Source: a virus
Taxonomy: Duplodnaviria > Caudoviricetes
IMG/VR virus record: IMGVR_UViG_3300037422_000161
Coordinates: 1 to 36,807 of that record
Direction: 5' to 3' (one strand)
Length of the DNA: 36,807 bases
In this document: positions 3,956-36,807 of the stretch, in pieces
How the letters are laid out: each line of letters opens with the position of its first letter
Position numbering within the stretch: the stretch's first letter is position 1
Notes under the pieces: generated by a model
Seen by the model: the letters and a program-made list of their open reading frames with translations, nothing else
The model's database searches: none
What the model was told of the DNA's origin: nothing
Program-made: the position numbers and the translations under genes

Positions 3956-4125
3956 CGCCCGCAGACTTCCGCGACCTCGTCTCCCGGATGCGCGCCGCGC
4001 AACGCGACTACTTCCGCTCGCGCAGCCCCGCGGCGCTCCGCCTCTCGATCGACCTCGAGCGCCAGGTCGACGCGGAGCTGCGGAGCGAGCCGGGGCTCTT
4101 CGACGACCCGGTAGCGCATGGGTGA
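3952..4125 (+). CDS. Small phage helical protein
   Basis: ATGA coupling; MTPADFRDLVSRMRAAQRDYFRSRSPAALRLSIDLERQVDAEL. Confidence 0.65.
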   Translation: MTPADFRDLVSRMRAAQRDYFRSRSPAALRLSIDLERQVDAELRSEPGLFDDPVAHG

Positions 4126-6947: not shown

Positions 6948-7070
6948 AGACGGGACCTCGGAACCTTTTAGACCTCTCCCCCTCAGTGCATGGAGAGTAC
7001 ATAGGGATTTCCCCTATGTGTACGCGTATGCAAGTGGCGGGAGAAGCCCCCGGAGGTCCACTAGGTCCCG
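6897..7070. repeat. Putative replication origin: (A/G)GGTCCCG-type iterons in both orientations around an AT-richer palindrome
   Basis: Copies at 6897, 6908, 6917, 6926, 6951, 6959, 7054 and 7063; inverted repeat ACATAGGG/CCCTATGT at 6999-7019. Confidence 0.6.
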
Positions 7071-7083
7071 CGGAGCCGGATCC

Positions 7084-7335
7084 GTGAGCCGCCCCGCTCC
7101 ACGCTGCCCCATCTGCGGCCTGCGTCCGCCCCGTAACCTCGAGGCCGCGACCTGCAACCCATGCCGCGGAGCCGTCGACGAGCTCCGGCGGCTACCACCA
7201 GCCGACCGCGCTCGCGCACTCGCCCACGCGCTGATCCGCGTCCGCCGCTGCTGGGCCGCACTGCACGGCGAGCAGGCGGTACAGGCGAACCTCGGAGCCC
7301 CGCCGCGGGTGGCAGGAAAGCCTGCCAGATCTTGA
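7084..7335 (+). CDS. Small Zn-finger protein
   Basis: GTG 7084 after GGAG; CPICG...CNPC. Confidence 0.55.
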   Translation: MSRPAPRCPICGLRPPRNLEAATCNPCRGAVDELRRLPPADRARALAHALIRVRRCWAALHGEQAVQANLGAPPRVAGKPARS

Positions 7336-7361
7336 CGGCTCCCCGATGTCGGGTGTAGCCA
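7332..7361 (+). promoter_or_regulatory. Candidate late promoter upstream of the terminase genes
   Basis: TTGACG -35, spacer containing palindrome CCCGA-TG-TCGGG, then GGGTGTAGCCAT; weak -10. Confidence 0.35.
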
Positions 7362-7405
7362 TGCTCGCGCGAGAGTCCCCGGGAGATGCCCCATGAGCCG
7401 TCGCG

Positions 7406-7957
7406 ATTGACGCACGCACCCCATCCGGCCCACGGACACCCGGCCCACGGACGATCTGTGGGGCCAAGAACCGGCGTGGCCACCCATGTGGGAACCGCCC
7501 TATCGCCGGGCGGAAGCGCTGCCGGATGCACGGGGGAAACCAGCACAAACTACCCGAGGGGCAGCGCGGCGGGGCGAAACCGACGAGCTTCCTGTACCGC
7601 CGCCACCTCCACGCGAGCGAGCGGGAGGCTTTCGACGCCGCCGCCGTTGACTCGATCGACGACGAGATCCGGCTGGCCAAAGCGAACCTCGACGCGGCGG
7701 TTAAGGCTTGGGCCGCCGATCCTCGAGGTGGGGTTGTCCAGTCGCGGGGGGACAGCGTCATCCGCGAGCGCCTGTGGTTCGATATCGTCCGCGAGCACGT
7801 CGAGTGCGTCGCGAAGCTCCTCCGCACGAGGATTGCGATGGGCCTCGGCTCCGGCGGTGGCGAGGAAGACATCGATGGGTACGAGTCGTGGCTAGCGGCG
7901 CAGCGTGCCGGGGGACCGCCCGCCGAACCACCCGGCTCGTCGTCGGGTGCGTCCTGA
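7406..7957 (+). CDS. terS: Terminase small subunit with HGGxSTG-like Zn-binding N-terminus; start uncertain
   Basis: Frame upstream of ATG 7526 encodes ICGAKNRRGHPCGNRPIAGRKRCRMHGG; SIDDEIRL motif; directly precedes terL. Confidence 0.7.
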   Translation: MDARTPSGPRTPGPRTICGAKNRRGHPCGNRPIAGRKRCRMHGGNQHKLPEGQRGGAKPTSFLYRRHLHASEREAFDAAAVDSIDDEIRLAKANLDAAVKAWAADPRGGVVQSRGDSVIRERLWFDIVREHVECVAKLLRTRIAMGLGSGGGEEDIDGYESWLAAQRAGGPPAEPPGSSSGAS

Positions 7958-9504
7958 TGGCGATTCCGACGGCCGACGCCCTGGCCGCGCTGCGCGACCC
8001 CGCGTACCACCGGCACCTGATGTTCCGCCGTGTGGACTCCGTCCTCGAGCGCCAGCTCGGCCGCGAGCTCGAGCCGCACGAGGCGCAGTCCAAGCTGCGT
8101 GGGCCACAGCTGTCGATCGTCCGCCGTATCGAGCGCGCGATCGCCGCGCGCGCCGGCGAGAAGATCTCGGTGCTCATGGCGCGGCAGACCGGCAAGAACG
8201 AGATCGAGGGCTTCCTCGAGACGCGCGCGCTGAGGGTGTGGTGCGGGATCCCTGGGTCGACCTGGGTGCGGACGGCGCCGACGCACAAGCCGCAGATCGT
8301 GAACTCGAAGCTGCGGCTCGAGAAGCACCTGCTGTGCGATCCGCTGATCGCCGGACGCTACCGCAAGCGCGAGGGGTACATCTACGAGCTGGGCAAGGCG
8401 CAGGTGCACTTCCTGTCCGGCGGGAGGACGGCGCAGGTCGTCGGTGACACCGCGTCGATCGCGCTGTCGGTCGACGAGGCGCACAAGATCGACCGGGACA
8501 AGTTCGAGGAGGACTTCGCCCCGTTCACGGCATCGACGAACGCGCCCACGATCCTGTGGGGTGTGGCCGCGGCCAAACAGGACCTGCTCCACCGCTACCG
8601 CGAGGAGGCCCGCGGCACCGACCGCGTGATGGTGTTCCCGGCCGCGGTGTGGTGCGAGTTGTCGAAGCCCTACGCAGGCCACTACGAGACGCGCCGGCGC
8701 GAGCTCGGCGCCGACCACCCGGTGATCTTGACCCAGTACGACCTGGTTCCCGTCGAGGCCATCGGGGCGTACCTGAATCCCGCGCAGCGCGCTGCGCTGT
8801 TCGCGGGCGACCACCCGCGTCTCGAGGCTCCGCGCGCCGGGATGTCCTACGGCATCCTGGTCGACATCGGCGGCGAGGTCGAGTACGAGGCCGACAGCGA
8901 CGAGGTGCGCGAGCTCGAGCCCGGGCGCGACAGCACCCAGGTCCTGATCGTCGAGTGGGATCCGCGAGCGCCGCAGGAGCCGTACCCGGTGACGCGGATC
9001 GTCAACGCCCTCACGTGGACCGGGAAGCAACACGAGGCGGCCGGTCCCGAGATCGTGAAACTCTGCCACCACTGGCGCGTCGGCGTCGGAGCCATCGACG
9101 CCGTCGGCGTCGGCGAGGCCACCGCGGGCTACGTGAGCCGGCGCGTTCCCGCGGTCGCGCCGTACAAGGCGACGTCGACGACGGTGTCCGAGGACTGCTT
9201 CGACCTCCTGGCCCGGTTGAACTGCGGGACCATCACCGCCTGGCGCGCGGACACGGCCGCGGACGCCGAGCTGCGCGAGCTCGAGGCGCAGAGCCGGCAC
9301 ACGCGCTACGAGATCCGGGGCCACACGAAGATGCGCCTCAAGAAGCCGACCGGCATCGGCACGTCGGACCTGCACATCGACATGGTCAAGGCGCTGACCT
9401 ACGCGCGCCTGGTCGTCGGCCGCGCCCCCTACTCCGGCCTGCTGGGCTGGATGGAGCAGAAGGCCGAGGCTGCGCGTGCCGCGCGGGAGGCGCGGAAGTC
9501 GTAG
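7957..9504 (+). CDS. terL: Terminase large subunit
   Basis: MARQTGKNE Walker A, LSVDEAH Walker B, C-terminal nuclease-type acidic motifs (LVDIGG, AIDAVGVG, HIDMVKA); TGATG coupling at 7955-7959. Confidence 0.88.
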   Translation: MAIPTADALAALRDPAYHRHLMFRRVDSVLERQLGRELEPHEAQSKLRGPQLSIVRRIERAIAARAGEKISVLMARQTGKNEIEGFLETRALRVWCGIPGSTWVRTAPTHKPQIVNSKLRLEKHLLCDPLIAGRYRKREGYIYELGKAQVHFLSGGRTAQVVGDTASIALSVDEAHKIDRDKFEEDFAPFTASTNAPTILWGVAAAKQDLLHRYREEARGTDRVMVFPAAVWCELSKPYAGHYETRRRELGADHPVILTQYDLVPVEAIGAYLNPAQRAALFAGDHPRLEAPRAGMSYGILVDIGGEVEYEADSDEVRELEPGRDSTQVLIVEWDPRAPQEPYPVTRIVNALTWTGKQHEAAGPEIVKLCHHWRVGVGAIDAVGVGEATAGYVSRRVPAVAPYKATSTTVSEDCFDLLARLNCGTITAWRADTAADAELRELEAQSRHTRYEIRGHTKMRLKKPTGIGTSDLHIDMVKALTYARLVVGRAPYSGLLGWMEQKAEAARAAREARKS

Positions 9505-11974
9505 CCTCGCCAAGCGGCTGCCGCCCGGCGTGGTCCGCACCGCGCCCCTGTCGGTGACGCTGCCGGAGTTCTTCGACCCGGTCTCCGGGCGTGCGCTCGG
9601 CGATCGCGCGGCGTCGCTGATGCCGAGCGCGTCTCGTCCGTTCCCCGCCGGCGAGCCGCCTCCGACCGGGCAGCCCACGGGCTCGCACCCGCGAGCGCTC
9701 ATCCCGCCGCCGTTCCAGAACACAACCGGCCACCGCCGGCGGTGGCGCGGGATCGACCTCACGCCGTTCGCGCAGCTCCGGGCGCTGTCGCGTTTCGACC
9801 TGGTCCGGGTCGTGATTCGCGACATCAAGGGCCAGTGCCAGGGGATCGAGCTCGAGGTCGCGGTCCGCGACGAGTTCAAGGACCAGGCCCGGGCGCTGCA
9901 GCCGAAGGTCGACGCGGCCCGCGCGTTCGTCGAGTGCCCGGACCCGCTCGCGGACCTGGACCTCGCGGGGTGGGTCGGCAAGGCGATCGAGGAGATCTTA
10001 GTCACCGACGCGCTGTCGCTCTACCCGATCTTCTCGAAGGGTGGCGAGCCGCTCGGACTCGGCCAGATCGACGGCGCGACGATCAAGCCGCTCGTCGACG
10101 ACCTCGGCCGGCCTCCGCTGCCGCCGAACCTGGCCTACCTGCAGTACGTGCACGGCCTGCCGGAGACGGGCTTCTACCAGCCGCTCGGCACGCCGTCGAG
10201 CCGCGAGCTGTGGTACCTGCCGTACGAGCGGCAGCCCGACTCGCCGTACGGCTACAGCAGCACCGAGCAGGTGCTCATGACCGTCAACCTGGCGATCCGC
10301 CACACCCTGCACGACCTCGCGTACTACACGAGCGGCAGCCTCCCGGACTCGCTCTACACGATGCCCGAGGGGTGGAACCAGGAGACGATCGAGAAGTTCC
10401 AGCTCTGGTGGGACGACGTCCTGGACGGCCGCAGCGATCGCCGCGCCGGCGGCGTGCGATTCGTTCCGCAGGGCACCTACACCGCGACGAAGACCCGGGA
10501 GTTCAAGTACGACTTCCTCGAGTGGCTCGGCCGTGTGATCGCGTGGGGCTTCGGCGTGTCGCCGCTGCCGATCATGCGGATCTCGAACCGCGCGCAGGCC
10601 GACCGGATGGAGCAGAGCGTCTCGGAGTCGGGCGTCCGGCCGCTGATCGGCTTCGTGGTGCGCATCCTGAACCGCTACGTTCAGCGCGTGCTAGGCCTGG
10701 CGGAGATCGAGGTGCGGCTGCGTGACGACGAGGTCGAGGACCCCGCGGTCGTGGCCACGCGGAACGTGTCCTACGTGCACGGCGGCATCCGGACGCTGAA
10801 CGCCACCCGCGCGGACCTCGGCGAGGAGCCGTACCCGGCCGAGTTCGGCGATCGCCCGTTCGTGATGACGCCCTCGGGCCCGCTGTTCCTCGACACGATC
10901 GAGGAGGAGCGCAAGAGGCGTGAGGAGCAGGCGGCCGCGCTGGCGGCGAGGCTGGGCGGCGGCGGCCAGCCGGGCGGCGGCGCTCCCGGGGCGGGTCCCG
11001 TAACCGACCCGGAGCCCGACCCCGATACCCTCACCGAAGAGCCCGCGCTCGAGCGCCTGCACCGCTGCCACGTCGAGCACCGCGGGCGCGTCCGCGATGA
11101 CCTGCAGAAGCGTCACCGCGTGCAGAAGCGCCACCCGGGGCGCGCGTTCGTCTCGACGCTGATCCCGCCGCGGGGCGCCGCGCGGCGGTTCCAGAAGGCC
11201 GAGCTCGCGCTGACGACGGAGCAGAAGGCGCTAGAGGCCTCGCTGCGCACGGCCGTGTCCGCGTGGCTCGCTGCGCAGCTCCCGGTGGTGACGGCGTGGG
11301 CGATCGGCTTCCTGCCACCGGCGCCAGCGGCGAAGCTCGCGAAGCAGCTCCCGCTGCCGCCGTTCGTCGGCGAGAAGGACCTGTTCAACGCCATCTCGGC
11401 CGTGCTGTTCGAGGCGCACCAGGTGGGCGCCGGCGACGCCGCGCTGTCGATCGCGGCCGACCTGAGCACTCCGTCCGAGACCGCGCTGGCCTACGCGCAG
11501 GAGCGCGCGGCCGAGCTGGTCGGAAAGACGTGGATCGCGGGCCAGCTGGTCGACAACCCGAGCCCGAAGTTCGCGATCACGGACACGCTGCGGCAGGACG
11601 TGCAGTCGCTCGTCACGCGGGCGATCGCGGAGGGCATGTCGCCGCAGGACCTAACGTCGAAGATGGTCGAGACGTTCGGGCCGTGGCGCGCGGAGACGAT
11701 CGCGCGCACCGAGACGGGGATCGCGTACAACGCCGGCGCCGCGGACGTCTACGAGGCCTCGGACGTCGCCCACGTCGAGATCCTCGACGGCGAGGGCTGC
11801 CTGCCCAGCGGGCACCTGGCGGGCGCGCCGAAGGCCAGCGGGTCGGTCGGCGTCGTCGAGGAGAACGCGGAGGCGGACGGGCAGGTCTGGACCGTCGCGC
11901 AGTGGCGCGAGCTGATGCTGGGGCACCCGAACTGCGTCCGTGCCGGCGTGCCGTACTTCGCTGGGGAGGTCTGA
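9497..11974 (+). CDS. Portal protein fused to Mu gpF-like head morphogenesis domain; start AGT 9497 or GTG 9476
   Basis: Portal motifs (IDGATIKP, SPYGYS..EQ, FGVSP, GIRTLNATRADLG) and C-terminal RAETIARTET..AYN...HPNCVR. Confidence 0.88.
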   Translation, partial: SRSLAKRLPPGVVRTAPLSVTLPEFFDPVSGRALGDRAASLMPSASRPFPAGEPPPTGQPTGSHPRALIPPPFQNTTGHRRRWRGIDLTPFAQLRALSRFDLVRVVIRDIKGQCQGIELEVAVRDEFKDQARALQPKVDAARAFVECPDPLADLDLAGWVGKAIEEILVTDALSLYPIFSKGGEPLGLGQIDGATIKPLVDDLGRPPLPPNLAYLQYVHGLPETGFYQPLGTPSSRELWYLPYERQPDSPYGYSSTEQVLMTVNLAIRHTLHDLAYYTSGSLPDSLYTMPEGWNQETIEKFQLWWDDVLDGRSDRRAGGVRFVPQGTYTATKTREFKYDFLEWLGRVIAWGFGVSPLPIMRISNRAQADRMEQSVSESGVRPLIGFVVRILNRYVQRVLGLAEIEVRLRDDEVEDPAVVATRNVSYVHGGIRTLNATRADLGEEPYPAEFGDRPFVMTPSGPLFLDTIEEERKRREEQAAALAARLGGGGQPGGGAPGAGPVTDPEPDPDTLTEEPALERLHRCHVEHRGRVRDDLQKRHRVQKRHPGRAFVSTLIPPRGAARRFQKAELALTTEQKALEASLRTAVSAWLAAQLPVVTAWAIGFLPPAPAAKLAKQLPLPPFVGEKDLFNAISAVLFEAHQVGAGDAALSIAADLSTPSETALAYAQERAAELVGKTWIAGQLVDNPSPKFAITDTLRQDVQSLVTRAIAEGMSPQDLTSKMVETFGPWRAETIARTETGIAYNAGAADVYEASDVAHVEILDGEGCLPSGHLAGAPKASGSVGVVEENAEADGQVWTVAQWRELMLGHPNCVRAGVPYFAGEV

Positions 11975-11975
11975 T

Positions 11976-12005
11976 GCGGCCGCCGACTCAGCGGCCGCCG
12001 ACTCA
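11976..12005 (+). repeat. 15-bp tandem repeat (GCGGCCGCCGACTCA)x2
   Basis: Exact tandem duplication just after the portal stop. Confidence 0.8.
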
Positions 12006-12114
12006 GCGCCGGGCCTACGAGGCGCCGCAGGTGATTCCAGCGCCGCCCTTCGGCGGCTCCCCACGAATCGCGTTCCTCATGTCCGCCTGGGACTGCGAGT
12101 GGCTCAGGTCTCAT

Positions 12115-12187
12115 CGCCGCGTGGAGCAGACGGTAGCTCGCCGGTCTACTTTGCCGGAGGTCGCTGGTTCGAGTCCAGCCGCGGCTA
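12115..12187 (+). tRNA. Initiator-type (tRNA-fMet-like) tRNA with anticodon ACU (reads AGU); CCA not encoded
   Basis: C-GCCGCG/CGCGGC-U-A acceptor with C1:U72 mismatch and A73; D stem GAGC/GCTC (A11-U24); anticodon stem CCGGT/GCCGG with loop CT-ACT-TT; variable AGGTC; T arm GCTGG-TTCGAGT-CCAGC. Confidence 0.9.
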
Positions 12188-12211
12188 CCCCCCTGATACC
12201 GGAGGCGCTGA

Positions 12212-12574
12212 AGTCCCCGCACTGACGTACCCGTAACCGTCGTCGGCGTGGCCGGCCTCGCGCTGGGCGCGCCCGCGACCGAGGTCGCGGGCGACACGGT
12301 CAACGGGCACAAGATGCGCAACACCGGCCGGGAGTGGCTGCACGTGCGCAACACGAGCGGGTCGCCCGAGACGGTGACGCTCATCATCCCGCGCACGGTC
12401 GACGGCGCGGCCGTCGAGGACCCCCAGCGCACCATCGCCGCCAACGAGTCCCGGTCGTTCCCGCCGTTCAACGAATCGGTCTATGACCCCGGCTCCGGTG
12501 CCGAGGACGTCGGCTACCTGACCTTCGACGTGTCGTCCGCGAACCTGCGGTTCCAGGCGTTCCGCAAGAGCTGA
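12212..12574 (+). CDS. Small beta-rich virion (head-associated) protein; predicted AGT start
   Basis: GGAGG-cgctga-AGT-CCC-CGC-ACT gives xPRTDVPVTVVGVAGL...GDTVNGH.MRNTGREWLHVRN; GTG 12248 has no SD. Confidence 0.75.
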   Translation, partial: SPRTDVPVTVVGVAGLALGAPATEVAGDTVNGHKMRNTGREWLHVRNTSGSPETVTLIIPRTVDGAAVEDPQRTIAANESRSFPPFNESVYDPGSGAEDVGYLTFDVSSANLRFQAFRKS

Positions 12575-12600
12575 GCCCCCGGGCCAGACGGAGACCCACG

Positions 12601-13842
12601 ATGAGCAACGCGAGATTCGAGCGGTTCGTCCCGATCACCAAGGTCAACGAGGAGACCCGGGAGGTCCACGGCATTCTCGCGCTCGAGCAGCCCGACCACG
12701 CGGGCGAGATCATGGACTACGAGAAGTCGAAGCCATTCATCCAGGAGTGGAGCGACTCGTTCAAGCTCGCGACCGGCGGCAAGAGCGCGGGCAACCTGCG
12801 CGCGATGCACGGCAACGTGTGCGCGGGGAAGTTCACGGCCGTCGAGTTCAACGATGCCGACAAGTCGGTCCCGGTGGTGGCGAAGGTGGTCGACGAGCAG
12901 GAGTGGGCCAAGGTCGTCGAGGGCTGCTACACGGGCTTCTCGATCGGCGGATCGTATGGCGACGTCTGGATGGACGGCAAGCTCAAGCGCTACATCGCCA
13001 AGCCGGTCGAGGGCTCGCTGGCGGACAAGCCGTGCATGCCCGGCGCAACGTTCACGCTGATCCGTGCCGACGGCTCGGTCGAGCTGCGGAAGTTCGTCGC
13101 CGCGCCGCCCGCGCCCACCGAGGCCGTCGCGAAGTGGCTCGACGGCTCGCTGCGCAAGGCGCTCGAGGCCGCGGTCGCGGCCGGCGACTCCGCGATCGAG
13201 TCGATCAAGGCCATGGCGGTGCAGATGCTCGGCGAGGCCGGGAAGCCCGACACGTGGTCGATCGAGGACCTGATGCAGGCAATCCGCCGGGTCGCCGGCG
13301 CGCAGTATTCGGCGGCATCCGCCGGTGGAGGACTGAGCATGTCGACGCAGCCCGAAGTCACGAAGACCGCGCCGGTCGCCGGCGCCCCCGCGGCGACCGC
13401 GGACCCCGCGCCGCCGGCACCGGCCACCGCGCCGGCCGGCGACGTCCACATCCTGAAGCAGATCACCGACACGCTCGGAGCGCTGCACAAGGCGCTGACC
13501 GACCAGGCCGGCGAGCAGAAGGCCGCCCGGGAGGAGCTCGGCAAGGTCGTGGAGGCCGCGACGGCGGCCGCGACGTCGAGCATTCTCGAGAAGGCAGGGG
13601 CTCAGTTGGCGGAGGTCCAGAAGTCGCTCGAGGAGCGCATCGGGAAGATCGAGGCCCAGCCCGCCCGTCCCGGCGTCCCGGTGGACAAGACGGTCGGGGT
13701 GACCGGCGCGCACCCGCTCGCCGCGGAGTTCGGAAAACTGGAGGCGCTGATCCAGACGCTCGAGAAGTCGGGGGCCGACTCGGCCACGATCCGCGACGTT
13801 CGGATGGCGGCCTCGCAACTGGCGCTCGCGCCGCTGCGCTAG
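12601..13842 (+). CDS. Prohead protease with C-terminal scaffold region
   Basis: ITKVNEETREVHG, NLRAMHG, YTGFSIGG, EGSLADKPCMPGATF; C-terminal Ala/Pro linker and coiled coil. Confidence 0.85.
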   Translation: MSNARFERFVPITKVNEETREVHGILALEQPDHAGEIMDYEKSKPFIQEWSDSFKLATGGKSAGNLRAMHGNVCAGKFTAVEFNDADKSVPVVAKVVDEQEWAKVVEGCYTGFSIGGSYGDVWMDGKLKRYIAKPVEGSLADKPCMPGATFTLIRADGSVELRKFVAAPPAPTEAVAKWLDGSLRKALEAAVAAGDSAIESIKAMAVQMLGEAGKPDTWSIEDLMQAIRRVAGAQYSAASAGGGLSMSTQPEVTKTAPVAGAPAATADPAPPAPATAPAGDVHILKQITDTLGALHKALTDQAGEQKAAREELGKVVEAATAAATSSILEKAGAQLAEVQKSLEERIGKIEAQPARPGVPVDKTVGVTGAHPLAAEFGKLEALIQTLEKSGADSATIRDVRMAASQLALAPLR

Positions 13843-13863
13843 CGGCCACAACGGAGGTGCTGA

Positions 13864-15333
13864 AGTAACCCGCAACTGACGATGGACACGCTCGGCCAGG
13901 TGGCCGAGGCGATCAAGGGCCTGCGCGCCAACCCCGCGCTGGCGAAGGCGATCGACCTCGCGACCGGCCTGACGGGCTTCAACTTGGAGGCTCCCGCGAA
14001 GCTCCAGGTGCCGCTGCTCGCGCCGTTCCGGCAGAGCATCGGGCGCCGGGTCTGGCCCGGCAACGGGACGAACTGGAAGGCGATCACCGCGGTGACGCCG
14101 ACCGGGACACTGAAGGCCGCGGAGGCCACGAAGGCCAACGCGTGGGCGCTCACGAAGGTCGACAAGTCGACGACTTACGGGTCGTACGGACGAGCCGGCA
14201 GCGTGACGTGGGAAGGCCAGCTCGCCGGCATGAACTTCGAGGACGTGCGCGCTCGCGACGAGGCGATCACGCTCCTTCAGTTCCTGCGCGAGGAGGAGGC
14301 CTGCATCCTCGGCGGGCACGCCGGCACCGCGCTCGGCGCGAGTCCGACGATCACCGCGGTGGCGGCGGCGGCCGGAGGCGCGCTCGTCGACGACCAGTAC
14401 TTCTTCATGATCGTCTCGCTGACGATGGCGGGCGCGATCCGGGCCGGGCGCATCATGCGGCCGACGCCGGGCACGAACAAGTACGACTTCCTGGCCGCGG
14501 ACGGGCAGACGCTGACGCTCGGCGACGGTCACGGGCTCGTGTCCGCCGAGGCCAACGCGACGGTCGCGGGCGGCGGCGGAGCCGGCCAGGTGACGCTGAC
14601 CTGGACGCCCGACCCGGAAGCCGTCGCGTACGCGGTGTACTGCGGCCTCACGACGGGCGCGGCGAACCTGAAGCTGCAGGGCGTCGTGTCCCAGACCGAG
14701 GTGATCATGACCTCGTTCGGCACGCTGGGCGCGGCCGCGTCGCTCGTCGCGGCCGCAGGCGACACGTCGAACAGCGCGCCGTTCAGCGGGATCCTCTCCC
14801 AGCTCGTGGCGGCCGGCTCGGGGGCCTACACGCGCAACCTGAACAACCCGCTGTCGGCGGCGTCGGGTCGCGGGATCGCCGAGATCGACCTGATGCTCGA
14901 CGACATCTACGACCGTGTGAAGGAGGAGCCCGACCGGCTGCTGATGGGATGGACGGAGCACCAGGCGATCGACGACAAGATGTCGGCGGTGGCCAACGAT
15001 CGCGTGAACCTCAACGTCACGGTCGGCGCGGACGGCGACCCCGGGGCGCAGATGCCGCGGTTCACGAAATACAAGTCCAGCCGCGGGAAGCTCATCCAGA
15101 TGGAGGAGAACCCGAACATCCCGGGCGGGATCATCATCGCGCTGAAGGACCGCGTCGCGTTGCCGAACTCGGAGGTCCCGTCGCCGTGGCAGATGCACAT
15201 GGCGGCGGAGGTCATGCGGCTCGACTACGCGATGACGGCGCCGAAGGACGAGTTCGAGGTGCGGGCGCGCGGCGCGCTCGCGGGCTACGTGCCGTCGTTC
15301 CAGGGCGTCCTCTACAACATCCACGAGGCGTGA
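13864..15333 (+). CDS. Major capsid protein; predicted AGT start
   Basis: Follows the protease/scaffold; GFNLEAPAK..., EEEACILGG, central beta-rich insertion; GGAGG-tgctga-AGT in frame, whereas ATG 13882 lacks an SD. Confidence 0.85.
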   Translation, partial: SNPQLTMDTLGQVAEAIKGLRANPALAKAIDLATGLTGFNLEAPAKLQVPLLAPFRQSIGRRVWPGNGTNWKAITAVTPTGTLKAAEATKANAWALTKVDKSTTYGSYGRAGSVTWEGQLAGMNFEDVRARDEAITLLQFLREEEACILGGHAGTALGASPTITAVAAAAGGALVDDQYFFMIVSLTMAGAIRAGRIMRPTPGTNKYDFLAADGQTLTLGDGHGLVSAEANATVAGGGGAGQVTLTWTPDPEAVAYAVYCGLTTGAANLKLQGVVSQTEVIMTSFGTLGAAASLVAAAGDTSNSAPFSGILSQLVAAGSGAYTRNLNNPLSAASGRGIAEIDLMLDDIYDRVKEEPDRLLMGWTEHQAIDDKMSAVANDRVNLNVTVGADGDPGAQMPRFTKYKSSRGKLIQMEENPNIPGGIIIALKDRVALPNSEVPSPWQMHMAAEVMRLDYAMTAPKDEFEVRARGALAGYVPSFQGVLYNIHEA

Positions 15334-15362
15334 CCCTGGCCGGCTTCCGAGACTGAACGAAC

Positions 15363-15396
15363 CGGGCGGCCGGGGGCATCGCGCTCCCGGCCGCCC
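15363..15396 (+). terminator. Strong GC hairpin after the capsid gene (terminator or mRNA stabiliser)
   Basis: GGGCGGCCGGGGGC-ATCGC-GCTCCCGGCCGCCC; no U tract. Confidence 0.5.
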
Positions 15397-15409
15397 AACG
15401 AGGAGCGCG

Positions 15410-15685
15410 ATGGCGAGGAAGGACGATCGACACGAGACGCACGCGGCGGGAGTCGCCCAGGGTGCTGCGCCCGAGAGTGCGGCGGATCCGGTGGCGGCGG
15501 ATCCGGTGGCCCAGGAGGCCCCGCCTCCCGCGGCCCCGTCGGCGACGATCACGATGAAGGCCCCCGCGGGCGCCTGCGACGTGTGCTTCGACGGCGAGAC
15601 CTACCCGGTCGCGAAGGACGGAACGGTGAAGCTCCCGCGCGCGGCTGAGCGCGTGCTCGTCCCGCTGGGCTTCCGCACCACGTAG
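15410..15685 (+). CDS. Small Ala/Pro-rich virion-associated protein
   Basis: AGGAG SD and ATG; position after the capsid gene. Confidence 0.7.
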   Translation: MARKDDRHETHAAGVAQGAAPESAADPVAADPVAQEAPPPAAPSATITMKAPAGACDVCFDGETYPVAKDGTVKLPRAAERVLVPLGFRTT

Positions 15686-15695
15686 GGCGCGCTGA

Positions 15696-16334
15696 AGTAT
15701 CGGCACGACCGCAGAACTGAAGGCCTGGGCGCGGACGAAGCTCGACTCCGCGGACGCCACCCTGCTGACCCGCGTCCTCACCGCGGCCTCGGACTACATC
15801 GAGGACCGCACCGGGAGGCTGTGGGCCAAGGCGGAGCACACGCTCTACTTCGACGGTGACCGCGCGGACGGGCGCAACCGCGAGCTGCTGATCGTGCCGC
15901 CGCGCTACCGGCCGGCGCACTACGCTCCAGGGACCGACGAGATCACCGTCACCGAGGACGGCACGGCGCTCGTTGTCGCGGTCGGGTACTCGACCACCGC
16001 GGACGTGATCCTGCGCAACGCCAACGACCCGCGGCAGAGGCTCGCGCTGGTACGACGCGGGACGAGCCCGCAAAACCTGCTGGCCGACTCGCCGGCGACG
16101 CCCGGATGGGCCGGCGGCGTGCAGAACATCGCCGTCACGCTGAAGGCGGGGCCCGCCACTGGCACGGCCCCCGCGGACCTCGTCCAGGCGGCCTACGAGC
16201 TGGCCTACCTGTTCTACGACGACCCGACGCGCGTGGGGAAGAGTTCGTCTTCGCGCGCGGGCGCGTCCATCACGGTCGAGCGCGACCTGTCGAAGATCGC
16301 GCAGATGGCGATCGCGTCGAGGGCCGTGGCGTGA
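15696..16334 (+). CDS. Head-tail connector (gp6/gp15-like adaptor); predicted AGT start
   Basis: From AGT 15696: xIGTTAELKAWARTKLDSADATLLTRVLTAASDYIEDRTGRLW...NIAVTLKAG...PADLVQAAYELA; first canonical start (GTG 15894) is 66 codons downstream. Confidence 0.82.
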   Translation, partial: SIGTTAELKAWARTKLDSADATLLTRVLTAASDYIEDRTGRLWAKAEHTLYFDGDRADGRNRELLIVPPRYRPAHYAPGTDEITVTEDGTALVVAVGYSTTADVILRNANDPRQRLALVRRGTSPQNLLADSPATPGWAGGVQNIAVTLKAGPATGTAPADLVQAAYELAYLFYDDPTRVGKSSSSRAGASITVERDLSKIAQMAIASRAVA

Positions 16335-16972
16335 GCGCCCCGATCACCAGCGGCGCCGTGGTCATCGACCTGGGCGAGCTCGAGCGCCTGGTCGAGGCGC
16401 AGGGCATCAAGCTGCCGGCCACGGTGGCCGTCGGCCTGCGCGAGTCCGTGCTGCTGATGATCGCGGACGTCACCAAGAACCGCCTGCGCGGCCAGTACCT
16501 CCACCGGCGCACCGGGACGCTGATCCGCAGCATCACCGCGTCGCCGCCGGCGAGGCCGGAGGTCACCCTGCAGGGCGACGGGGGCGGGCTCGTCCGCGAC
16601 TGGTTCGGGACGCACCTCGATTACGGCCGCGCGCACGAGCTCGGCTTCCGCGGCCGCGTGCAGATCCCGGCGCACACCCGGCGGCTCACGCGGAACGTCA
16701 AGCGAGCGAAGGCGCGGCTGCGTCAGGCGCAGAAGCGTCTCGGCCCGGCCGCCCCGGTGGGCGGCCTGAGCAGCGCGGGCTTCGCCGTCAAGCGCTTCGC
16801 CCACGTCCGACCGCACAGCCGGTTCATGCGCATCCGCGCGCGCCACTACCTGCGCGACACGATCGCCGCGAACACCGGGAAGGCCCGGCTGCGCGTCATG
16901 CGCGCGGTCCTCCTGCTCCTCCGGACCGGCCGCGTGCCGCGGGGCTCCGAGGTGCGCAGTGCACTCTCGTGA
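16331..16972 (+). CDS. Neck/tail completion protein (HK97 gp10 / virion morphogenesis-like)
   Basis: GTGA coupling; RRTGTLIRSI, GTHLDYGRAHELG, RARHYLRDTI. Confidence 0.75.
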   Translation: MSAPITSGAVVIDLGELERLVEAQGIKLPATVAVGLRESVLLMIADVTKNRLRGQYLHRRTGTLIRSITASPPARPEVTLQGDGGGLVRDWFGTHLDYGRAHELGFRGRVQIPAHTRRLTRNVKRAKARLRQAQKRLGPAAPVGGLSSAGFAVKRFAHVRPHSRFMRIRARHYLRDTIAANTGKARLRVMRAVLLLLRTGRVPRGSEVRSALS

Positions 16973-17964
16973 GCAACGTCGTCCAGGAGCCGGGATTCGA
17001 GGACTCGGCGCCGTGGCAGCTGTTCAGCAACGCGAGCATCGGCGGCGCGGAGGGCGTGCACGGCGGAGCCGCGGCGCTCGTGCTCCCGATCTTTCGCACG
17101 GCCGGCGGCATCGTCGCCCAGGGCGAGGGGCGGCAGTCCGTGACGCTCGTCCCTGGGCTGGCCTACCAGGGGCTCGCGGCCTGGGTCAAGTGGAAAGGCG
17201 GCAGCACCTACCCGCTGAGGTTCCAGCTCGACGACGGCAGCGGGATCCTCTCCACGGTGCTCACGGTCCCGACGTCGGACATGCCCGAGGACACGTTCAC
17301 GCGGGTCCAGGTCGTCGGGACGCACCTGGCGGTCGGGGCCGCGGGGCGCGTCTCGTGGCTCGGGTTCCCCGCCGCGGGGCAGTCGGCATTCGAGGTCACG
17401 ACGTGGGTCGTGGACGACGTCGAGCTCGACGACGGCAGCGTCGTCCCGTCACCGGAGGACGTCGTGGCGTTTCGTAAGTGGCTCGTGGCCGAGCGGCTGC
17501 GCGACAAGCTGCTGACGATCCAGGGGGCGGGGGCGGGCTACTGGACCACGCTGGGCGATCGCGTGTTCTACAACCTAATCTATCCGCACGAGGACGGCGC
17601 GCCGCGCGACCCGTACGTCTGCATCCCCTTCGACGGCAGCGCGGGCCCGCTCCCGGTGATGGAGCATCGGTCGCTCAAGCTGACCTGGCCGCAGCCGATC
17701 TACGCCTTCGCTCCCAACCCCAACGAGGAACTGCTCGACCGCTCCGGCGAGCTCGCGCGCCGCACCGCGGACCTCGAGGACGACCTGGTGCGCGCGCTGA
17801 TGAGCCCCGACGTGGCCTTCGGCGACCTCGTCAAGGACAGCCGCCTGCTCCCGATCGTCCCGCACGCCGGCGAGGATCCGGAGTTCCACTGGGGTCAGGT
17901 CAACGCGGTCGTGGAGTTCGACGCAATCGTGCAGCACTCCAATCTCGGCCCGGGAGGTGTTTGA
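16969..17964 (+). CDS. Tail terminator-like protein with N-terminal carbohydrate-binding-like domain
   Basis: N-terminal VVQEPGFED...VVDDVEL jelly-roll-like pattern; C-terminal LRDKLLTIQG.G.GYWT...DLEDDLVRAL. Confidence 0.55.
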   Translation: MSNVVQEPGFEDSAPWQLFSNASIGGAEGVHGGAAALVLPIFRTAGGIVAQGEGRQSVTLVPGLAYQGLAAWVKWKGGSTYPLRFQLDDGSGILSTVLTVPTSDMPEDTFTRVQVVGTHLAVGAAGRVSWLGFPAAGQSAFEVTTWVVDDVELDDGSVVPSPEDVVAFRKWLVAERLRDKLLTIQGAGAGYWTTLGDRVFYNLIYPHEDGAPRDPYVCIPFDGSAGPLPVMEHRSLKLTWPQPIYAFAPNPNEELLDRSGELARRTADLEDDLVRALMSPDVAFGDLVKDSRLLPIVPHAGEDPEFHWGQVNAVVEFDAIVQHSNLGPGGV

Positions 17965-18354
17965 AGTAGCGCGCAACGGATAGAGCTCGTCGCCTCCGCG
18001 CCGAAGACCGCGAGCGGAGAAAGCGACTCCCGCAAAGTCTCGACCGTCTCGATGCTGTTCGTCGGCATCGACATCACCGCCTACGCCGGAGGCGCCGGCT
18101 TCACCGCCTGGCTTCAGGGCTCCGACGACGGCGGGACCACCTGGTACGACCTGCTCGCAGACCAAGTGCTGCCCTCGACGGGCGTCGAGGTCGGCGGCAC
18201 ACCCGCAACGAACGTCCGCGACATCTGCGACGACGCCGCGGCGGCCGGCAAGTTCTCGGCCGTCTACAAGCACATCCCGACCGACTACATCCGCCTCGCC
18301 TGGGACCTCGACGGCACGAGCGTGACGTTCAGCAGCTCGGCCGTCGGGAAGTAG
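17965..18354 (+). CDS. Beta-rich structural protein; predicted AGT start
   Basis: GGAGG-tgtttga-AGT gives xSAQRIELVASAPKTASGES...LQGSDDGGTTWYDL...YIRLAW; ATG 18052 has no SD. Confidence 0.72.
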   Translation, partial: SSAQRIELVASAPKTASGESDSRKVSTVSMLFVGIDITAYAGGAGFTAWLQGSDDGGTTWYDLLADQVLPSTGVEVGGTPATNVRDICDDAAAAGKFSAVYKHIPTDYIRLAWDLDGTSVTFSSSAVGK

Positions 18355-18372
18355 GGTGCAGAGGAGACACGC

Positions 18373-18651
18373 ATGCGCATGCTGAAGTTCGGCGGCCCGA
18401 ATCTCCCAGAAGGCACGAGCACCTGGTACGACACGCCGAGCCCCGCGAAGAAGGGCGAGTACGTCCAGGTGCGTGCGGAGCCCGGGCTGATCGTGCCCGC
18501 GGACCACGTCATGAAGTTCGCCGGCGCCGACGAGCGCGGCGCGGCGAAGCTCGAGCCCAACGCGGACTACTACGTCGCGAGCGGACGCGCCGAGTTCGCG
18601 GAGGAGAGCGCGCCGGCGTCAGCCCCCGCGCGCGCGAAGCCCAAGGAGTGA
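18373..18651 (+). CDS. Hypothetical tail-region protein
   Basis: GAGGAG SD and ATG. Confidence 0.65.
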   Translation: MRMLKFGGPNLPEGTSTWYDTPSPAKKGEYVQVRAEPGLIVPADHVMKFAGADERGAAKLEPNADYYVASGRAEFAEESAPASAPARAKPKE

Positions 18652-18707
18652 TCGAGCCGAGGTAGTGACCGACAACCCGTGCCGGCGCGCCCGGCGAGGA
18701 GGAACAG

Positions 18708-19238
18708 ATGGCTCTCGACGCAACCAAAATCATGGTGGGCGCCGGTGTGTTCTCGATCGGTGACTGGGTGACCGCGGGCGGGCCGGGGACGCTCGTCGAC
18801 GTCGGCCACATCAAGAGCCCGTTCGAGCTCGCGGCGTCCTTCGACAACTTCGACATCGAGACGGAGCGGCTGCAGGGGATCCTGGACCACCGTCCGACGA
18901 AGACCGACTACACGCTGAAGGTCGCGTTCCACCAGGCCGAGGTCGAGTGGCTCCGCATCGCACTCGCGCAGCCGGCGACGAACAAGAGCGGCACCGGCGC
19001 CAACCTCACGCTGCTGGTCGGCGAGCGCGCGAACCTGGACCACCAGGCGACGCTCGTGACCGCGGGCCCCGGGACGACGGGCGTGCGGACGCTGACATTC
19101 TGGCGGCTGAAGCTGATGTCGGTCGAGGCGATCCAGGTGGGCAAGGGGGTCGAGCAGCTCTACATCGCGACCTTCCGAGTGAAGCACGATCCGACGCTCT
19201 CGACCGCGGACAAGAACTGGAAGCAGGTCGACGCGTAG
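18708..19238 (+). CDS. Major tail tube protein
   Basis: GAGGAGG SD; MALDATKIMVGAG...LVDVGHIK; size and position before chaperone and tape measure. Confidence 0.75.
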   Translation: MALDATKIMVGAGVFSIGDWVTAGGPGTLVDVGHIKSPFELAASFDNFDIETERLQGILDHRPTKTDYTLKVAFHQAEVEWLRIALAQPATNKSGTGANLTLLVGERANLDHQATLVTAGPGTTGVRTLTFWRLKLMSVEAIQVGKGVEQLYIATFRVKHDPTLSTADKNWKQVDA

Positions 19239-19241
19239 GCC

Positions 19242-19270
19242 GACCGGGCGCGGAACACGCCGCGCCGGTC
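19242..19270 (+). terminator. Hairpin after the tail tube gene
   Basis: GACCGGGCGCGG-AACACG-CCGCGCCGGTC (one bulge). Confidence 0.4.
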
Positions 19271-19283
19271 AGCGGATCACCAG

Positions 19284-19919
19284 GTGAGCGCCAGGAGCTT
19301 CATCCGACACCGCCGGCCCCTCCGTCACGAGGGCCGGCGATACGTCGTTCGCGGTCCGACCTACGCGACCGTGTGGGCGCTCGTAGCCGCGTACCCGGTC
19401 GAGGTCGCGGGCATGGCCGCGGCGCACCTCGCCCACCCTGGAGCGGTCACGGTCGAGTCGGCGCTGGGCCTGCTCGTCCCGGCCCGAGGCGACCGCCGCG
19501 CCGTGGACGTCCTCACTACCTGCGTCGAGACGGAGGCCGACCCGGCGACGTGGCCACTCCGCACCCTCGCGCTCGCGATGCTCGGGCTCTGCGATCTCGG
19601 GGCGATCATCGCCCACGTCGGGATCGAGCGTCTGGCGGCGATTGCGGAAGCGGAAGGAACGACCGCGCGGGCCGAGGGAGGGCCGGACGAGGACGGCCGC
19701 GACGGCGCGACCGCGATCCTGGAGATCGCCAGGCTCTTCGGCTGCTCGCCCATGGACGTCATGGACTGGCCGTACGAGGCCGTGATGGTCGCGCTCGACG
19801 TGCTCCCGGACATGCTCGGCCGCGGCGGCGAGCCGGAGGACGGGTCGGGCCACAGCCCGGAGTTCATGCGCATGCTCCGCGAGATGGCGCGCAAGCCGCC
19901 GACGAAGCCGGAGGCCTGA
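19284..19919 (+). CDS. Probable tail assembly chaperone
   Basis: Between tube and tape measure; IARLFGCSPMDVMDWPYE resembles gpT-like tails. Confidence 0.6.
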   Translation: MSARSFIRHRRPLRHEGRRYVVRGPTYATVWALVAAYPVEVAGMAAAHLAHPGAVTVESALGLLVPARGDRRAVDVLTTCVETEADPATWPLRTLALAMLGLCDLGAIIAHVGIERLAAIAEAEGTTARAEGGPDEDGRDGATAILEIARLFGCSPMDVMDWPYEAVMVALDVLPDMLGRGGEPEDGSGHSPEFMRMLREMARKPPTKPEA

Positions 19920-19920
19920 C

Positions 19921-22113
19921 GTGGCCGACCTGACTGTCCGCGGCGTGATCGAGTTCCTGCTAAAGGGCACGGGACTGAAGCAGGCGAAGGAAGGGCTCGA
20001 AGGCGCCGAGAAGGCGGCGAAGAAGACCGGGCAGGAGATCAGCCGGACGACGAAGGTCGCGGCTGGACTCGAACGGCAGTTCTTCCGGATCTTCGGCGGC
20101 GCCGCGCTCCTGGCGTTCGGCCGCGCCGCGGTGACTGAGTTCGCGAAGGTCGAGCGTGGCCTGGGCGTGCTGCGCGAGCAGATGACGGCGCTCGGGATCG
20201 ACGCCGCCGTGCAGCTCCCGCGGGTCCGCGCGTTCCTCGAGGCGATCGAGGCCGGCGGCGGCGCGCTGCTGGCCGACACGATCCCGGCCTTCGCCCGGCT
20301 GCTCCGCGTTACGAAGGACGTAGACGCCGCACTCGCGGGGACGAAGCTCGCGGCGGATATCTCGGAGGCGGGATTCCAGACGGCCTCGAGCGCGGCCGAG
20401 ACTCTCGCGAACCTGATGCAGGGGCGGGCCAGGATGGCCGCGCAGTCCCTCGGCATCGAGCTAAGGAAACTCAACGGCGAGCAGAAGACCAACGCCGAGC
20501 TGATCGACGAGGTGATCACGCTCTACTCGGGGATGACGGAGCGGCTCCGCGACACGCAGGACGGACTGGACAAGAGCGCCGCCGCGTGGGCATCCGTCAA
20601 GCGGGCGGTAGGGGAGGCTCTTGGAGAGATTGCCGGCGTCGGAGACGTACTCCTGAAGGTCGTGCAGAGCATCCTGCCGGCTCTGCAGCTGACCTGGCAT
20701 TCCGTGGCCGGGACGCTACTCGGCATCGGGCGCGCCGCGCGGGTCGCGCTCGACCCCCGCAGCTGGTTCGCTCCCGACTTCGCAGACGTGGTCGGGGCGG
20801 CCTTCCGCTCCGGCTTCGACCAGGTCGCGCCAGAAGCAGAGGCCGCCCAGGAGATCCTGAGCGAGATATGGAAGAGGGGCGCGGCGTCCGCCGTGCAGAC
20901 CGAGGAGAAGAAGCAGGCAGGTCTCGCCAAGCTCCGAGACCAGGCGATGCGCGCCGCGATGGCCGAGGACGAGAAGGCCGCCGCAGAGAAGGCGGCCAAG
21001 GAACGCGAGCGCGCCGAGAAGCTCGCGGCCGAGCGCACCGAGTTCGAGCGCCGGGTGCAGGACGACATTCTCCGCGTGCGACTGGAGGCCGCGGCGGACG
21101 GCTCCGCCGAGGAGCTGCAGCTCCAGCGTGAGCTGCTCGATCGCGCGCGCGACGTCGCGGTCGCGGAGGCCATCCGGCTGGGCGCCGACGTCAACGCGGT
21201 CAACGAGCAGTTCCGGCTCGCCGACGAGCTGCTGCAGGACGAGTCGCTCGACCGCTCGCTCGAGAAGCAACGCGAAGCCGCGGAGCGCGTCGCGGAGTTC
21301 TCGGCGCGGGTCCAGGCCGGGATCCTCGAGGACGAGATCCGCCGCGCCGAGGAGGCCGGCGAGGAGTCGCTCGCGCTCCGGCTGGAACAGCTCGAGCGGG
21401 AGATGGAGCAGGAGCTCGCGGAGGCCGACCGGCTCGGGGCCGACCGCCACGCCGTCCGCCTGAAGTGGGAGAGGCGCGCGACGGCGCTCGAGCAGTCCGA
21501 GGAGCAGAAGCGCACTCAGGCCGCCAAGCTCGCGGCCAACGCGCGGGTGCAGATGATCGCGACCGCGGCCACCGCGGGCCTGACGGCCGCGTCCGCGCTC
21601 TTCGGTGAGCACAAGGCGTTCGCGATCGCGCAGGCGATCATCGACACCTGGGCCGCGGTCAACAACGCGCTCGCGACCGTGCCCTACCCGGCCAACATCG
21701 CCGCGGCGGCGCTGATCGCCGCCCAGGGGCTGGCGAACGTCGCGCGGATCCGCGAGACCACGAAGGGAGGCGGCGCCTCGGCCGAATCGGGGGCCTCGGC
21801 GCCCTCCGGCTTCGACGACCCGGTCAACGACCGCGCGGCGCGCCTCGGCGGCCGCCGCTGGGCCGACGACATGCTGCGGCACGTGTCCAGCGGGTTCAAC
21901 GAGCGGCTGGGCAGCATGACGGTCGCGCCGCAGCCGGCGGGAGCGGCCGCGTCGATCCCCGGCGGTGGTTCTCCGGTCGTGCCGCAGGCCTCCGACCAGG
22001 TGCGCTCGGTGCACTTCAACGGCCCGGTGTTCGGCGGCCGGCCCGGCATGCGCCGCTTCGTGCGCATGATCGAGGGCGTGCGCCGCGGCGACCGGGGCCG
22101 GAGGATGCGGTGA
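19921..22113 (+). CDS. Tail tape measure protein
   Basis: 730 aa Ala/Glu-rich helical protein; KAFAIAQAIIDTW..V.NALA..PYPANIAAAA motif; GGAGG SD. Confidence 0.88.
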   Translation: MADLTVRGVIEFLLKGTGLKQAKEGLEGAEKAAKKTGQEISRTTKVAAGLERQFFRIFGGAALLAFGRAAVTEFAKVERGLGVLREQMTALGIDAAVQLPRVRAFLEAIEAGGGALLADTIPAFARLLRVTKDVDAALAGTKLAADISEAGFQTASSAAETLANLMQGRARMAAQSLGIELRKLNGEQKTNAELIDEVITLYSGMTERLRDTQDGLDKSAAAWASVKRAVGEALGEIAGVGDVLLKVVQSILPALQLTWHSVAGTLLGIGRAARVALDPRSWFAPDFADVVGAAFRSGFDQVAPEAEAAQEILSEIWKRGAASAVQTEEKKQAGLAKLRDQAMRAAMAEDEKAAAEKAAKERERAEKLAAERTEFERRVQDDILRVRLEAAADGSAEELQLQRELLDRARDVAVAEAIRLGADVNAVNEQFRLADELLQDESLDRSLEKQREAAERVAEFSARVQAGILEDEIRRAEEAGEESLALRLEQLEREMEQELAEADRLGADRHAVRLKWERRATALEQSEEQKRTQAAKLAANARVQMIATAATAGLTAASALFGEHKAFAIAQAIIDTWAAVNNALATVPYPANIAAAALIAAQGLANVARIRETTKGGGASAESGASAPSGFDDPVNDRAARLGGRRWADDMLRHVSSGFNERLGSMTVAPQPAGAAASIPGGGSPVVPQASDQVRSVHFNGPVFGGRPGMRRFVRMIEGVRRGDRGRRMR

Positions 22114-31686: not shown

Positions 31687-32580
31687 ATGGATCCTACCAC
31701 CCCGGTCGAATCGATCCGGATCGACTCCATCGTGATTGGTGAGCGGCGGCGGGCGAGGCTCGGGAGCCTCGCATCGCTCAAGCGCAGCATCGAGACCCAC
31801 GGCATCATCCACCCGATCGTCGTCCGAAACGGCAACGCCCTGGTGGCCGGGGCCAGGCGGCTGGAAGCGTGCCGACAGCTCGGGTGGGAGAAGATCCCGG
31901 CCCGCCGGGTCGAGCGCATGAGCGACGACGACCTGCGATCGATCGAGCTCGACGAGAACGAGCAACGGCTTGCCCTGGCCGACTACGAGTCCAGCCGGCA
32001 ACGTCTCGCGGAGATCCGGCAGGCGGAGGCGGAGGCGAGAGCGGAGGCGGAAAGTGTCCCGGCCCGGGACACTTCGTCGGGGAAGCGTAAGAGCCGGAAG
32101 AAGCCCGGATCAAAACGGGACATCGAGAAGCGAACGGGCGTGAGCAAGGCCGGACAGCAGCGCCTCGAATCCCACGTCGCGATCGCGGAGCGCTTCCCGT
32201 TCATGCAGAAAGAGCCGTGGAAGCAGTACACCGTGCTGGAGGCTGGCGAGAAGATGGAGGCGATCCCGAAAGCCGAGCACAAGGCCGTCGCGGTCCTCAT
32301 CGACCAGCCGGGCGTGCCGCCGAAAAGCGCGATCAAGACGCTCGGGAACCTCGGCGCGATGGACGCCGGCCAGCGCGCTGAAATCTACGGGCTCGCCAAG
32401 AGCGCCGACCCGGAGGACAACAGCGCCGCGCTCACCATGGCCGCGCGGCTACCCCGGGAACCGCACCGGTGCGTGCTGGCGCTGACCGGGATCCGCCGAG
32501 AGCTGGAGAAATGCAAGAAGCACGCCGCGCTTGTCGAGAAGCTCGACCGGCTCATCGCCGAAGCGCGCAAGGAGGATTGA
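31687..32580 (+). CDS. ParB N-terminal domain protein
   Basis: IRIDSIVIGERRR...LKRSIETHGIIHPIVV...LVAGARRLEAC..LG...ELDENEQR. Confidence 0.88.
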   Translation: MDPTTPVESIRIDSIVIGERRRARLGSLASLKRSIETHGIIHPIVVRNGNALVAGARRLEACRQLGWEKIPARRVERMSDDDLRSIELDENEQRLALADYESSRQRLAEIRQAEAEARAEAESVPARDTSSGKRKSRKKPGSKRDIEKRTGVSKAGQQRLESHVAIAERFPFMQKEPWKQYTVLEAGEKMEAIPKAEHKAVAVLIDQPGVPPKSAIKTLGNLGAMDAGQRAEIYGLAKSADPEDNSAALTMAARLPREPHRCVLALTGIRRELEKCKKHAALVEKLDRLIAEARKED

Positions 32581-36540: not shown

Positions 36541-36807
36541 TGGACGCCGCTCGACTCGCGGAGATCCTGCGGCTGCACGCCGCGTGGCGCACCGGAGCGG
36601 AGGGTGGCGTGCGGGCCGACCTGCGCGAGGCCGACCTGAGCTGGGCCGACCTGCACGGGGCCGACCTGCGCGAGGCCAACCTGCGCGAGGCCGACCTGAG
36701 CTGGGCCGACCTGAGCTGGGCCGACCTGCACGGGGCCGACCTGCGCGGGGCCAACCTGCGCTGGGCCGACCTGCGCTGGGCCGACCTGCGCGGGGCCGAC
36801 CTGCACG
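36540..36807 (+). CDS. Pentapeptide-repeat protein, 3' truncated
   Basis: [48 protein letters not shown]...; A(D/N)Lxx repeats run to the window end. Confidence 0.92.

Follow-up and report, generated by a model that had tools for sequence, protein, structure and literature searches.

We propose that the phage genome described here carries a natural orthogonal translation-initiation system, in which a phage tRNA would initiate at the AGU codons of five late genes; we put the probability of this reading at about 0.85. Analysis of the window, that is the whole 36.8 kb stretch of DNA, found one tRNA of the fMet type with the anticodon ACU, and AGU at the homologous starts of five late genes. Therefore, this tRNA likely initiates them. 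The tRNA and the five genes are listed in Table 1.

Table 1. The ACU tRNA and the genes with a predicted AGT start in the window
Feature	Positions	Strand	Basis
tRNA, initiator (fMet-type) body, anticodon ACU at 12147-12149	12115..12190	+	ARAGORN; Rfam RF00005, 51 bits; cloverleaf; pair table
Predicted major capsid start: SD GGAGGT 13853-13858, in-frame TGA 13861-13863, AGT 13864-13866	13853..13866	+	Sequence; anti-SD energy; alignment with Met of homologs
HK97-fold major capsid protein	13864..15333	+	489 codons from AGT; structure model and fold matches
Portal, predicted start: SD GGAGG 9486-9490, AGT 9497	9486..11974	+	PHROG 2662; homolog starts 0 to +7 codons
Small virion-region gene (phrog_38030), predicted start: SD GGAGG 12201-12205, TGA, AGT 12212	12201..12574	+	Homolog ATG at -1 and +3
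Head-tail adaptor, predicted start: weak SD AGGG 15684-15687, TGA, AGT 15696	15684..16334	+	PHROG match from residue 3
Conserved 129-aa late gene, predicted start: SD GGAGGT 17953-17958, TGA, AGT 17965	17953..18354	+	Homolog starts

The window is an entire viral record, 78% complete, with a G + C content of 71%. A PHROGs scan placed the replication genes at 0.4-6.9 kb, the genes for head and tail at about 7.5-25 kb and that for an endolysin at 27.7 kb. Under table 11, the late ORFs have no internal stops and terminate with TGA or TAG. Neither a sigma-70 promoter nor a plus-strand terminator was found between 6800 and 19300. DNA of the window was found in one freshwater metagenome run, in which two contigs covering 9300-18200 have zero differing letters; the window possibly comes from this very run, which does not count as independent. 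No RNA dataset was listed as carrying the window DNA. A 20-bp direct repeat, TGAATCACCCGCGGCCGAGC, is located at 1266-1285 and 1466-1485, after two small early genes, and each end of the record (1-120 and 36620-36807) has repeat-rich ORFs.

The single tRNA of the window was labelled Ser(ACT) by ARAGORN, and its nearest annotated phage matches in GenBank are mostly tRNA-Met. The GenBank phage matches, including those of the cultured phages Pan5, NTR1 and PaMx74, have CAU in 8/9 cases, and the ninth (L150) was not parsed. The anticodon loop is CU-ACU-UU with U37, the variable loop has 5 nt, and the 3′ end is ACCC with CCA not encoded. As in initiators, C1 and U72 are unpaired, a mismatch also present in 29/29 host-class initiators read, and the D stem (GAGC/GCTC) contains A11-U24. 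The formylase determinants G2-C71, C3-G70 and A73 are found, with C-G instead of G-C at the minor 4-69 pair; such initiator and formylase marks are given in the available text of bioRxiv 10.64898/2025.12.21.695813 and PMC9976931. The anticodon stem has G29-C41 and G30-C40, the latter being the essential pair in the E. coli initiator, and U31.G39 as the third pair. The natural variants of this G-C stem named in the accessible part of the same source have au as the first or gu as the third pair, and U31.G39 is not among them there (PMC5389676). Bacterial tRNA-fMet (E. coli metZWV/metY) and ordinary CAU phage copies share with the window tRNA the 1x72 mismatch, A73 and the pairs 2-71, 3-70, 11-24, 29-41 and 30-40; it differs from them in the anticodon, in U37/U38 and in U31.G39. 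The tRNA likely works like an initiator, judging from these positions, yet with ACU and not CAU it is not classed as tRNA-fMet. Its minimum-free-energy z-score of 0.23 was uninformative.

No synthetase was clearly matched to ACU, and comparison of 40 window ORFs with PHROGs found no synthetase, formylase or initiation factor in this record, which is 78% complete. Candidate amino acids for charging are Arg, with C35, U36 and A73 in place but no A20, and Met through mischarging. An ORF of 83 codons (11965-12225), which has the SD GGAGGT and opens at ATG 11974 in coupling with the stop of the portal gene, extends across the tRNA gene and could affect tRNA processing. It contains a 15-bp tandem repeat, GCGGCCGCCGACTCA twice; no PHROG match was found for this ORF, and no homolog outside its tRNA part.

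The gene at 13864 had been taken for the major capsid gene in the initial annotation, and structural comparison bears this out: the AlphaFold model (pLDDT 82.7) has phage capsids as its best PDB folds (SPO1 E, 6e-10; Pa223; SU10; HK97), and the gene is located between those for the protease and the head-tail adaptor. The model also has a beta-rich insertion beyond the HK97 core, at residues ~155-300 (14320-14750). PHROGs gave only a family of unknown function, and a locus search with the capsid as a single protein gave no matches. The initial annotation had further held that the SD points at AGT 13864 and not at ATG 13882, which would have no SD of its own. The distances (5 nt from GGAGGT to AGT versus 23 nt to ATG) and the energies of the anti-SD duplex (-10.8 versus -0.5 kcal/mol) agree with this, the canonical starts of other window genes having -3.8 to -11.8 kcal/mol. 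The ORF, which extends from stop to stop over 13864-15333, opens with SNPQLTMDTL straight after the in-frame TGA; counted from ATG 13882 it has 483 codons, as in the protein-database version. The protease ORF, which ends at TAG 13840-13842, is in the same frame, with TAG, six codons and TGA in between (13840-13866); a read-through fusion of protease and capsid was considered and rejected given the two stops.

A total of 46 capsid homologs were obtained from the database and 32 were aligned. The full-length homologs begin in register with AGT 13864, which falls on their initiator Met (for example, MLQELTQDSL in P0006 against xNPQLTMDTL), and ATG 13882 lies inside their conserved helix start LTx[DE][TS][LI]. 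This alignment had been proposed earlier as a check on the AGT start. Several homologs are annotated short, and these pointed to the relatives described below. Both AGT sites named in the initial annotation stand, as does the near-duplication of their contexts (12201-12214 and 13853-13866 are identical at 13/14 bases), but the window has five such sites in total and not two. The initiation at AGT with the aid of the phage tRNA that was implied there is still a prediction, for which the homolog alignment, the ACU initiator body and the anticodon/start matches in other phages argue.

The four further late genes all carry GA-AGT at the start. Their homologs start at -1 to +7 codons from the AGTs, the exception being GTA at -4 for the gene at 17965 in one lineage. 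In the complete relative L003, ATG or GTG is found at 5/5 homologous genes, -1 to +5 codons from AGT. The adaptor appears to be the clearest AGT-start case: there is no ATG, GTG or TTG for 66 codons downstream of AGT 15696, homology begins at residue 2-4, and five homologs, 199-212 aa long, begin in register with it; its SD is weak (-3.6 kcal/mol). For the gene at 17965, homologs start with ATG or GTG at position 0 in L003, L006, L010, L013 and L030, and its first ATG is at +29 and has no SD. The next canonical codon of the gene at 12212 is GTG at +12, again with no SD. The portal is the weakest AGT-start case, given the alternative GTG 9476 located 7 codons upstream (-5.9 kcal/mol, against -10.3 for AGT 9497). 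An in-frame stop lies immediately 5′ of many non-canonical starts, both in the window (12209, 13861, 15693 and 17962) and in other phages introduced below (L034, 5128 and 5900 (minus); L058, 9287 (minus); L105, 11823). AGT 362 was also considered as a start and rejected, as the methylase encoded there matches its PHROG from GTG 407.

The pattern GGAGGN{3,5}GAAGT, which was picked after the sites had been seen, occurs 5 times in the window, against 0.17 expected and with 0/100 shuffles reaching this number; one of the five (13611) is out of frame inside the protease gene and not at a gene start. The looser GGAGGN{5,8}AGT occurs 9 times against 3.7 expected (1/100 shuffles). An SD-conditioned binomial that counted all five AGT sites is set aside, as four of them pass its SD threshold. 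An anticodon-blind census of SD-preceded codons near the 5′ ends of ORFs put AGT first (7/233, p 3e-4 uncorrected), with ATG just behind. The match within the protease gene (13611-13624, SD and A-AGT, in another frame with 26 codons) may be an internal start or chance, and the same applies to an SD and A-AGT at 32043-32055, in frame inside a ParB-like gene.

Viral sequences were scanned for D and anticodon stems of the initiator type in tRNAs that lack C34; the pattern fixed the columns of these two stems and left the acceptor stem (1x72, 2-71, 3-70) free. Among the 38 loci obtained, ARAGORN found a tRNA at the match in 15, with the anticodons TAC (7), AAC (5, four of them one phage), ACT (1), TAT (1) and TAA (1). 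A second scan, in which C34 was required and A35 excluded, yielded 10 loci and three tRNAs (CCT, CCC and CTA). Distinct phages with such tRNAs number 17, with the window and L016 included, and matching starts were found in eight of them. Besides the AGT starts of the window, a UAC tRNA is accompanied by GUA starts in L006/L025 (9 sites), L016 (8 sites), L030 (terminase and portal) and L058 (portal and scaffold), a UAA tRNA by UUA starts in L043 (portal and protease), a CCU tRNA by an AGG start in L105 (portal), and an AAC tRNA by GUU starts of two genes in L034. The GUU targets of L034 are not virion genes; in L034, L040, L052 and L055 (G004), the AAC initiator adjoins a PAPS-reductase-like gene and two GTT-starting genes, one of them ParB-like.

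No supported match was found in the other nine phages, which are mostly fragments (L046, L029, L049, L061, L062, L060, L031, L108 and L110), most of them searched by listing SD-plus-codon ORFs without full annotation. The L029 tRNA has a paired 1-72. No close copy of the ACT tRNA was found with an exact pattern, and a looser one gave 19 loci, of which only L046 has such a tRNA (286-360, initiator-type, also with U37). L046 is an unrelated phage (9.5 kb, 11% complete) whose head genes start with ATG or GTG and in which no AGT start was found; its head module is a real miss for the match between anticodon and start.

The relatives of the capsid split into canonical starters and GTA starters. Where the DNA of GTA starters reaches far enough (L006/L025 and L016), an initiator-type tRNA with the anticodon UAC is present, while the controls, which use canonical starts, lack a tRNA (G005, 100% complete; G410, G006 and G007, all incomplete). 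Six GTA-starting fragments (L004, L005, L010, L012, L015 and L021) have no tRNA in the available DNA; the L005 capsid is at distance 0 from that of the tRNA-carrying L016. A capsid tree of 37 rows puts the window in one group with two proteins that start with Met (100/99; known from the protein alone), away from the GTA rows, for which two changes are required. This suggests separate origins of the non-canonical starts; alternatively, the distribution may reflect repeated loss.

Alignment of 14 phage tRNAs with non-CAU anticodons revealed an unpaired 1x72 in 13/14, G2-C71 in 14/14 and C3-G70 in 13/14, and both sides had changed in 12/21 stem pairs. A covariance model built from the phage tRNAs ranks the host tRNA-fMet at the top, all 29 top host loci that were read being CAU initiators with C1xU72. 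The non-C34 pattern was also run on 401 genomes from the phylum to which the prophage host belongs; it occurred in 16 of them, and the only tRNA at a match was the known prophage copy.

The base 3′ of the anticodon was compared with the base before the start codon. The tRNAs of the window, L034, L058 and L105 have U37, those of L006, L016 and L030 have A37, and that of L043 has C37. Base 37 is Watson-Crick complementary to the -1 base at 26/33 sites, with two further wobbles, and 26 is the highest of 280 reassignments (mean 11.25); the 33 sites were hand-picked from SD-plus-codon lists, some without a homology anchor, and L006, L016 and L030 are one family. In comparison, U at -1 was found in 0/40 SD-plus-ATG sites of the window, L006 and L016. 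In E. coli, complementarity between base 37 and the -1 base raises initiation, as reported with compensatory mutants in the part of PMC10018350 available to us. Taking the phages together, it seems probable that diverse phages have repeatedly evolved private start codes. In such a code, a start word of four bases (A-AGU, U-GUA, G-UUA, A-GUU, AGG and perhaps the amber UAG) would evolve together with the anticodon and base 37, the first residue of the virion proteins would not be Met, and a tRNA would switch on assembly.

In the mechanism we propose, the late transcript would yield the tRNA, which host enzymes would mature, provide with CCA, charge and formylate. The charged tRNA would then enter the P site through IF2 and start translation of the five AGU genes, where U37 is predicted to pair with the A before each AGU, giving a four-base private start signal. 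Host ribosomes alone can likely make little use of these AGU starts. In the main text of bioRxiv 10.1101/063800, as far as available, 57 non-near-cognate codons give ~0.01-1% of AUG without such a tRNA, with no value specific to AGU.

As to its purpose, the odds are about even that the system serves as a gate, by which the synthesis of portal, capsid and adaptor would have to wait for the tRNA from the late transcript; a prophage with leaky transcription would then not produce virion proteins. One relative (L025) sits in a contig of a Candidatus Polarisedimenticolia genome and another (G005) is classed as a provirus; therefore, the family includes temperate members. The gate is argued by analogy with stop-codon recoding phages (crAss-like, Lak and others), which have suppressor tRNAs and in which recoding is enriched in late and lysis genes. 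There, too, a private code with its phage tRNA allows some of the late genes to be translated, but the system of the window would act at P-site initiation, once per gene, leaving sense and stop codons unchanged, and its sole tRNA is ACU, with no suppressor tRNA or reassigned in-frame stops found. Against a gate count the two GUU genes of L034, which are non-virion genes, and the 11/16 late genes of the window that keep canonical starts.

A different purpose of the same initiation, which is possible though we hold it only tentatively, would be the capture of ribosomes for phage mRNAs, escape from toxins or defences that cut tRNA-fMet, or a lock of the virion module against other elements, and not the control of lysogeny. 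VapC-type toxins cut tRNA-fMet. The use of the private codon by non-virion genes in L034 and L105 fits such a purpose, and several anticodons in unrelated phages fit diversifying selection. On the other side, most phage genes, including the terminase, protease and tail genes of the window, keep ATG or GTG and still need the host fMet-tRNA, and the family has proviruses.

It is quite unlikely that the host fMet-tRNA suffices. In that case, ribosomes would re-initiate at ATG 13882 beyond the stop of the protease gene to make the capsid, the remaining genes would have starts that are weak or near-cognate, and both the tRNA and the AGTs would be coincidence or a relic. ATG 13882 is indeed in frame and would cost 6 residues only, GTG 9476 is available for the portal, ATC follows the AGT of the adaptor, and the probability that at least 5/16 genes have an in-frame AGT near the start, with no SD required, is 0.009 uncorrected. 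However, ATG 13882 has no SD and lies 39 nt beyond the stop, the gene at 17965 and the adaptor have no usable alternatives, and this explanation leaves unaccounted for the covariation over four other anticodons and the tRNA-free controls.

A host start at an overlapping NUG, after which a -1 slip would bring the ribosome into frame and the phage tRNA would read the first elongated codon, is very improbable. It could draw on L006, in which 7/9 GTA sites (4689-20168) read ATG-TAA/TAG in the shifted frame, an overlap that may also be a decoy for host initiation. No NUG is found, however, at 4/5 sites of the window (only 17965 has one, TTG-AAG-TAG), at 4/8 sites of L016, or in L043, L058 and L105; U at -1 is equally predicted by pairing with A37, and the tRNA bodies are of the initiator type. 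That the tRNA is an elongator supplying Ser at AGY codons, as its ARAGORN label, its anticodon and the 87 AGC codons of the late genes might suggest, is hardly credible, since serine identity needs a long variable arm, G73 and G1-C72 (PMC9976931, available text), none of which it has, its A73, C1xU72, A11-U24 and stems being fMet-like and AGT being nearly absent internally (4/5492 late-gene codons); Ser is likewise an unlikely amino acid for its charging.

Bacterial initiation with fMet-tRNA(CAU) at NUG is treated as near-universal, and the phage system, if true, would be a natural exception to this rule. The closest known counterpart of the initiation at AGU is an engineered orthogonal initiator, i-tRNA-AAC, which likewise combines an initiator body with a changed anticodon and, in the available text, starts at GUU with Val/fVal in E. 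coli (bioRxiv 10.64898/2025.12.21.695813). L034 naturally carries the same AAC anticodon. Unlike engineered initiators, the phage system would be natural and phage-encoded, with start sites and -1 bases that have co-evolved. The starts AUU, AUC, AUA and CUG are also not of the usual kind, but they are read by host fMet-tRNA (bioRxiv 10.1101/063800, main text as available), whereas AGU departs from AUG in two of its bases and has a dedicated tRNA. The only changed-anticodon initiators that we came across are engineered ones; bioRxiv and the openly licensed papers of PubMed Central, as far as their texts were accessible, yielded no natural example, and one may have been reported elsewhere. At least five natural pairs of anticodon and start would add start-codon reassignment to the known variants of the genetic code. 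Such a system would also mean that phage late genes can be switched by a tRNA, and synthetic biology would gain evolved orthogonal initiators, together with their base-37 and stem solutions.

Private starts would also imply a systematic annotation error, as gene callers truncate the proteins; the database copy of the adaptor is shortened to 146 aa instead of 212. Likewise, tRNA finders label these tRNAs Ser, Val, Leu or Arg.

Several further tRNAs were observed in the scans. The L108 tRNA (3998-4080, CCC) has an enlarged, odd anticodon arm, and no supported GGG start was found with it. A G1xG72 tRNA with the anticodon TAG is located at 3155-3229 of L045 and was missed by ARAGORN. L110 carries an initiator-type tRNA with the amber anticodon CUA (919-992), possibly a natural amber initiator. 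An SD followed by TAG (L110:2412) was rejected as a portal start, having neither tblastn nor PHROG support, and the terminase ORF of the same phage (7499) opens straight after TAG, without an SD.
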